A DNA stretch of 27,235 nucleotides, from the NCBI RefSeq assembly GCF_003334385.1, contig NZ_QOWN01000058.1; one strand, 5' to 3'. Origin of the DNA: Escherichia coli. GTDB taxonomy: Bacteria; Pseudomonadota; Gammaproteobacteria; Enterobacterales; Enterobacteriaceae. How positions within the stretch are numbered: position 1 is the first letter of the stretch; each line of letters begins with the position of its first letter. This document shows positions 26,989 through 27,235 of the stretch, piece by piece. The notes under the pieces were generated by a model that was not told where the DNA came from, made no database searches, and worked only from the letters and a program-made list of their open reading frames with translations. A program made the translations under genes and the position numbers.

Positions 26989-27141
26989 ATGCTGACGAAA
27001 TATGCCCTTGCGGCAGTCATAGTGCTGTGTTTAACGGTGCTGGGATTTACGCTTCTGGTCGGAGACTCGCTGTGTGAGTTTACGGTGAAGGAACGTAATA
27101 TTGAGTTTAAGGCTGTTCTCGCTTACGAACCGAAGAAGTAG
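26989..27141 (+). CDS. hokE: Hok-family type I toxin HokE, 50 aa
   Basis: [50 protein letters not shown]: single transmembrane helix and conserved Hok C-terminus; GGAGG 8 nt before the ATG. The ORF track shows it as the C-terminal part of a longer in-frame ORF. Confidence 0.85.
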
Positions 27142-27162
27142 CCGTTGTGCGGGGAGTAATCC

Positions 27163-27235
27163 CATAAGCGCTAACTTAAGGGTTGTGGTATTACGCCTGA
27201 TATGATTTAACGTGCCGATGAATTACTCTCACGAT
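27163..27235 (+). mobile_element. insL: Left end of IS186 (IS4 family), truncated by window edge; includes the first 6 codons of the transposase (27218-27235)
   Basis: CATAAGCGCTAACTTAAGGGTTG at 27163-27185 matches my recollection of the IS186 terminal inverted repeat; ATGAATTACTCTCACGAT at 27218 encodes MNYSHD, the start of the IS186 transposase. Preceded by a G-run/C-run GC-rich sequence (GCGGGGAGTAATCC). Confidence 0.75.

Follow-up and report, generated by a model that had tools for sequence, protein, structure and literature searches.

In Escherichia coli K-12, the hokA, hokC and hokE loci are regarded as inactivated by insertion elements, as stated in a passage of PMC12214031 that cites Pedersen & Gerdes (1999). 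For the IS186 copy on the downstream side of hokC/gef, a disruption of the fbi element and of normal processing has been proposed (PMC3562002). The published target of this element, 5'-GGGG(N6/N7)CCCC-3', is highly specific, with 54 sites in K-12, and as many as 16 independent IS186 insertions were recorded at single GGGG-N6-CCCC sites in mutation-accumulation lines (Lee et al., 2016, PMC5009759).

The window analysed here, a stretch of 27,235 nucleotides of E. coli DNA (contig NZ_QOWN01000058.1), ends at a locus whose closest described counterpart is IS186B (insL2, b0582) next to hokE (b4415) in K-12 MG1655. Both share the order ybdK-sokE/hokE-IS186-entD-fepA, the insertion point, the orientation, the 10-bp duplication and the IS sequence, whereas the flanks of the window are 99.15% identical to those of K-12 over the shared 23 kb (about 0.85% of positions differ). 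The window very probably ends within a full-length IS186 (1.34 kb, IS4 family) that transposed into a G/C-rich stem-loop 8-25 nt past the hokE stop codon; the completeness of the element in the source genome is read from the near-identical record of strain SCU-104, the window itself holding 73 nt of it.

The toxin gene hokE occupies positions 26989 to 27141 of the plus strand, encodes 50 aa according to the open reading frame listing and terminates in a TAG codon (27139-27141). This reading frame lies under coding sequences to which genomes with 100% identity across the stretch give the name hokE (WP_000956455.1), and the hokE label is present in the annotation of all matching genomes; based on the annotation in identical genomes, the locus thus carries the toxin frame of about 50 aa typical of Hok/Gef. 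The NCBIfam Hok models gave scores of 47.7 bits (cut-off 89) and 38.9 bits (cut-off 73), both below the curated cut-offs, and therefore the HMM evidence alone is weak for hokE.

The hokE mRNA leader with the hok/sok regulatory region was located at 26842-26997 (plus strand) by a match to the Rfam family RF01794 'sok' (84.4 bits, gathering score 59, E=2.9e-19). The antisense RNA sokE was assigned to 26886-26945 of the minus strand by transfer from K-12 sokE (b4835; L003, 29734-29793), the two sequences aligning without gaps at an offset of 2848. Thus, considering the Rfam match and the K-12 annotation, a hok leader together with an antisense Sok region is present at the hokE locus. The 5' end of the mRNA, with the tac-like element GCGGGUGCCU, was placed at 26840-26849 (plus strand) as MFE folds of IS-free alleles pair nt 1-10 with the fbi element AGGCACCUGC and the RF01794 match begins at 26842.

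About 30 nt upstream of this 5' end, the sequence CTGTATAAATAAACAG at 26795-26810 (plus strand) forms a perfect CTGT-N8-ACAG palindrome resembling a LexA box, which is the sole match to this pattern in the window, with 0.06 expected. SOS regulation of hokE has been reported, and the palindrome fits this. In matching genomes a 'hypothetical protein' CDS was predicted by PGAP antisense to the mokE/hokE leader (approximately 26752-27020, minus strand), often frameshifted (e.g., L001, 4053-4321); this CDS over the sokE region is most likely an annotation artefact.

The first-pass annotation had proposed that IS186 is inserted 21 bp past hokE, with the terminal repeat starting at 27163 and the transposase start codon at 27218, and both positions turned out to be exact. 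The left terminal inverted repeat (23 bp, CATAAGCGCTAACTTAAGGGTTG) spans 27163-27185 of the plus strand and is an exact match to the left repeat in each of the three IS186 copies of K-12, while the first six codons (MNYSHD) of the transposase gene insL, at 27218-27235 (plus strand), coincide with the annotated start of insL2 in MG1655 at the same ungapped offset of 2848. The 73 nt of IS186 with which the window ends (27163-27235, plus strand) show 100% identity with the IS186 of thousands of records, and this agreement over all 73 bases leaves chance resemblance out.

The rest of the element is available from E. coli SCU-104 (NZ_CP053284.1), the sole genome that matched a 25-kb query from the window with 0 mismatches and one indel. 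Its IS186 is complete, with 1339 bp between the outer repeat ends, is base-for-base equal to the hokE and hokC copies of K-12 and contains an intact transposase ORF of 370 aa, which scored 133.3 bits on the IS4-family model NF033592 (cut-off 115). A perfect reverse complement of the 23-bp CATAAGCGCTAACTTAAGGGTTG is found at the far end of IS186 in SCU-104, K-12 and L001, 1.3 kb away, which puts the IRR outside the window. In SCU-104 the sequence GGAGTAATCC stands directly before and after the element and is followed by entD, fepA and fes, and the expected continuation past 27235 is therefore the remainder of IS186, then GGAGTAATCCCCGC and entD. These observations agree with the first-pass annotation in that the sequence continues as the transposase gene, ends in the matching inverted repeat (1.34 kb away in SCU-104), shows a target-site duplication (10 bp) and leads, as in other matching genomes, to enterobactin genes. 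The 23-bp repeats, the near-identical element of about 1.34 kb, the single 370-aa IS4-family transposase ORF and the GGGG(N6/N7)CCCC target with its duplication are all features of IS186.

The distribution of the insertion was evaluated in 5426 complete E. coli genomes by means of junction-centred 145-nt queries, for which a coverage of 80% requires crossing the junction. IS186 in the same orientation as in the window was detected by its left junction in 1741 and by its right junction in 1727 of the 5426 genomes, i.e., in about 1730 genomes (~32%). The slight excess of left over right junctions, the frameshifts noticed in some IS186 copies (1337 bp in L001, 1340 bp in L005) and the fact that the window stops 73 nt into the element would suit a solo end or truncated remnant in place of a complete IS186. 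Against such a fragment, the right junction is also present in ~99% of the genomes with the left junction, and a complete element of 1339 bp occupies the same spot in SCU-104, the record that follows the window over 25 kb, making a remnant highly improbable and a full-length IS186 the preferred reading. The junction accounts for the end of the window at this point, a multi-copy IS being a typical assembly break. For the 25-kb query, SCU-104 showed 23 matching places, the maximum among the 5426 genomes, which suggests that its IS186 copy number is unusually high (~20).

The spacer between the hokE stop codon and IS186, read directly, comprises 21 nt (CCGTTGTGCGGGGAGTAATCC, 27142-27162, plus strand). 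It includes the left half of a split target hairpin (GCGGGGAGTAATCC, 27149-27162, plus strand), whose intact form GCGGGGAGTAATCCCCGC is found in strain D10, and the left copy of a 10-bp target-site duplication (GGAGTAATCC, 27153-27162, plus strand), the same 10 bp flanking the other IS end in K-12, L001 and SCU-104. The comparison with unoccupied genomes envisaged in the first-pass annotation defined the target: the empty site of D10 (T allele), GGGGAGTAATCCCC, equals the left flank of the window plus the right flank with one copy of the duplication, and in UTI89 the empty site reads GGGGAGCAATCCCC, hokE being followed directly by GCGGGGAGCAATCCCCGC and entD. The pre-insertion target GCGGGGAGTAATCCCCGC reads GGGG-AGTAAT-CCCC and conforms to GGGG(N6)CCCC, so that the proposal of a G-run/C-run sequence of the kind preferred by IS186 was borne out by the published target (PMC5009759). 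Intact GGGG-N6-CCCC or GGGG-N7-CCCC sequences were not found elsewhere in the 27-kb window (0.17 and 0.30 expected by chance, respectively), and thus the hokE hairpin was the only consensus target of the region. A staggered cut across the hairpin loop would account for the duplication of GGAGTAATCC.

Since the target is palindromic, the ends of IS186 and of the duplication are ambiguous by a few bases, and the same string permits IS lengths of 1339, 1337 or 1343 bp, with duplications of 10, 12 or 6 bp, respectively. The K-12 record differs from the reading used here in that the IS boundary is drawn 3 bp further out on each side, giving an IS186B feature of 1345 bp that begins at window position 27160 and a spacer of 18 bp. 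The 21-bp spacer, with the stop codon ending at 27141 and the repeat starting at 27163, holds under the 23-bp repeat convention, and other boundary conventions shift it by a few bases.

The hokE insertion shares with the sites of the mutation-accumulation lines (Lee et al., 2016, PMC5009759) the same consensus, the duplication of the core and flanking G/C, repeated use and both orientations. Unlike the published target sites, the hokE target is the mRNA 3' stem-loop of a type I toxin gene and not a promoter, and what is lost at hokE are 3' regulatory RNA elements and not transcription initiation.

The consequences for the transcript were explored by MFE folds of the empty-site transcript, from its 5' end to the hairpin before entD, using both UTI89 and a reconstruction with the window's own left flank. 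In the empty-site folds, a 10-bp tac-fbi pairing joins nt 1-10 (GCGGGUGCCU) to AGGCACCUGC, located about 35 nt beyond the target hairpin. The target itself, which corresponds to the stem-loop conserved behind the stop codon of hok genes, is predicted to form a stem of 10 bp capped by a GNRA-type loop, and a strong terminal hairpin comes next; this is the arrangement classically described for hok mRNAs. The tac-fbi pairing of the ends and the 3' stem-loop are thus predicted in the empty-site alleles, and in the fold of the occupied allele the mRNA 5' end is left without its 3' pairing partner. The left arm of the hairpin remains with hokE, and the right arm, the fbi element and the terminator hairpin are moved 1.35 kb off, to the entD side. 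With the hairpin split and fbi beyond IS186, the locus of the window represents a disrupted member of the hok/sok family.

A convincing terminator was not found in IS186 on the hokE strand, the terminator and promoter scan of hokE plus IS186 yielding at most the shuffled expectation, and read-through into insL is therefore likely. By analogy with the hok/sok mechanism and on the predicted folds, the hokE transcript would lose the pairing of its 5' and 3' ends as well as its own terminator and would read into insL, and the hokE locus would cease working as a properly regulated hok/sok killer module, equivalent to the 'inactivated' state reported for K-12 hokE. The disturbance of the hokE 3' mRNA structure and terminator suggested in the first-pass annotation is consistent with these predictions and with the literature on K-12 (PMC12214031; PMC3562002). 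The hokE mRNA of the IS-bearing K-12 allele is still detected and its A-to-I editing has been reported (PMC12214031), which means that the gene is transcribed and that 'inactivation' refers to regulation and killing function.

IS186 was observed at other hok loci in a comparable position. In K-12 hokC, IS186A lies within GGCGGGGATCACTCCCCGCC, about 21 nt after the stop codon, with a duplication of GGATCACTCC; as at hokE, the target is a homologous GGGG-N6-CCCC stem-loop, the duplication is of 10 bp and the ORF is cut from fbi, whereas the locus and the loop sequence are different and the element points in the opposite direction with respect to the hok gene. The copy next to hokC/gef was reportedly described by Pedersen and Gerdes in 1999 and by Poulsen and colleagues. 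A Hok/Gef gene located between cysH and cas3 (WP_000956460.1; strain 1223, L009, 2899-4411) carries IS186 in its 3' hairpin GCGGGGGTAAAACCCCGC, with a duplication of GGGTAAAACC, and the spread listing suggests that this junction is present in several hundred genomes, roughly 540-640. The third K-12 copy occupies the nupC terminator (GGGGATAATTCCCC), and hence all three K-12 IS186 copies sit in target hairpins of the GGGG/CCCC type. The hairpins of hokB (GGGG-N5-CCCC) and hokA (GGG-N8-CCC) both miss the consensus, and both are without IS186 in K-12. In this small sample, target preference alone accounts for which hok loci are occupied by IS186.

Within the population sample, IS186 was also found at the same hokE position in the opposite orientation in 286 of the 5426 genomes (~5%, counted on the entD side), so that with both orientations together ~37% of the genomes are occupied. 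A higher count of inverted insertions (846), obtained with a synthetic left-junction query, was rejected, as roughly 540-640 of these genomes correspond to the cysH-cas3 Hok/Gef locus, with 91% identity. An uninterrupted hokE site, with at least one empty copy, was detected in 3648 of the 5426 genomes (~67%); a local BLAST showed that the coverage of the empty-site query stays below 80% in occupied genomes. Direct, inverted and empty sites could not be kept as exclusive classes, their counts exceeding 5426, because some genomes have two or three tandem hokE copies in different states. These arrays, with a unit of ~504 bp, are located between ybdK and entD (L010, 1399-2558; L011, 2008-2663; L012, 4291-6295). 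D10 has three hokE copies, all of them empty. In EC361, an empty copy is accompanied by one that bears an inverted IS186, and in EC_T6 the first copy carries an inverted IS186 and the second a direct one, with a separate GGAGCAATCC duplication for each element. Tandem Repeats Finder run on D10 did not detect the hokE array, the period of which is just above 500. In three records with inverted IS186 (L006-L008) the duplication copies differ by one base, GGAGTAATCC on the left vs GGAGCAATCC on the right, at the T/C position of the loop, which points to a later mutation or to recombination with a C-allele flank.

The junctions and the duplication are identical in all the direct-orientation genomes examined, and inverted copies agree precisely with them in position and duplication, as would be expected from one ancient insertion that was inherited vertically or spread by recombination, the opposite orientation arising through an in-place flip between the 23-bp inverted repeats. 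This history is nevertheless quite unlikely. The two loop alleles are both occupied by IS186 (duplications GGAGTAATCC and GGAGCAATCC), as are different copies of the tandem hokE arrays, with direct and inverted elements in adjacent copies of one genome; one ancestral insertion can hardly explain this use of both alleles, both orientations and different array copies. Moreover, the same hairpin position is occupied in hokC and in the cysH-cas3 paralog, the genomes nearest to the window after SCU-104 (98.4% identity) have an empty site, and individual GGGG-N6-CCCC sites received up to 16 independent hits in the mutation-accumulation lines (PMC5009759). Repeated insertion at the same target is thus the reading favoured here.

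Whether these insertions are retained for more than motif preference is another matter. They could be kept as advantageous, either by neutralising the toxin locus or by driving insL from the SOS-inducible hokE promoter, an explanation to which the frequency of the insertion (~37% of genomes, in both orientations) lends some support. In a survey of mobile-element insertions, four hok homologues of E. coli lay close to insertion hotspots, and the authors put forward adaptive disruption (bioRxiv 10.1101/527788). Several IS types are found in or next to hok loci, namely IS150, both at hokA and on the upstream side of hokE, and IS1, in REL606. The IS150 at hokA in K-12 and the IS150/IS1 upstream of hokE in B strains resemble the present insertion in lying close to, and outside, the hok reading frame, whereas they belong to another IS family with another target and affect the 5' (mok/sok) side and not the 3' hairpin. 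On the other hand, the motif alone predicts which hok loci bear IS186 (hokC, hokE and the cysH paralog, but not hokB and hokA in K-12), two thirds of the genomes retain an empty site, tandem amplification of hokE occurs in some of them, and an advantage beyond motif preference appears rather doubtful. With the same reserve, it can be speculated that the stem-loop after the hok stop codon is a family-wide landing pad for IS186, hit repeatedly and independently wherever it reads GGGG-N6-CCCC, and that uncoupling the gene from fbi and the terminator may be selected to disarm chromosomal hok loci instead of being a neutral by-product.

The first-pass annotation had also considered the element a hotspot for rearrangement, a suggestion that found no support, as the left and right junction counts differ by 14 genomes only. 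A 'hokE_large' deletion that removes fep/ent genes has been described (Hug & Gaut, 2015, PMC4557228); it was rejected as evidence for an IS186 rearrangement hotspot because in REL606 two direct IS1 copies flank that interval, the first within the IS150 upstream of hokE and the second near dsbG, and therefore the deletion does not implicate IS186. On the 5' side of hokE, IS150 was observed in AR_0061 (L005, 2431-3800) and IS150 interrupted by IS1 in REL606 (L016, 13543-15446); ATCC 8739 and BKQ37E match the window only from ~26917 onward, possibly from the same cause, an IS on the 5' side. At the other end of the window, positions 1-204 and 3013-3815 correspond to remnants of the DLP12 prophage of K-12 (tfaD/ybcY region; 97% identity), and the arrangement upstream of ompT differs from that of K-12.

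Altogether, the insertion is already known from the K-12 annotation, from Pedersen & Gerdes (1999), as represented in the passages of the papers that cite it, and from the published IS186 consensus. The modest additions made here are the population frequencies, the cases of inverted orientation and of tandem arrays, and the explicit identification of the hok 3' stem-loop as the target motif of IS186. Beyond correct annotation the significance is small: hokE of this strain is the IS-disrupted allele known from K-12, and the population figures extend the known picture without changing it. Even so, these figures, together with the tandem arrays and the hits in three paralogs, may serve workers on type I toxin-antitoxin loci or on the target choice of IS186.
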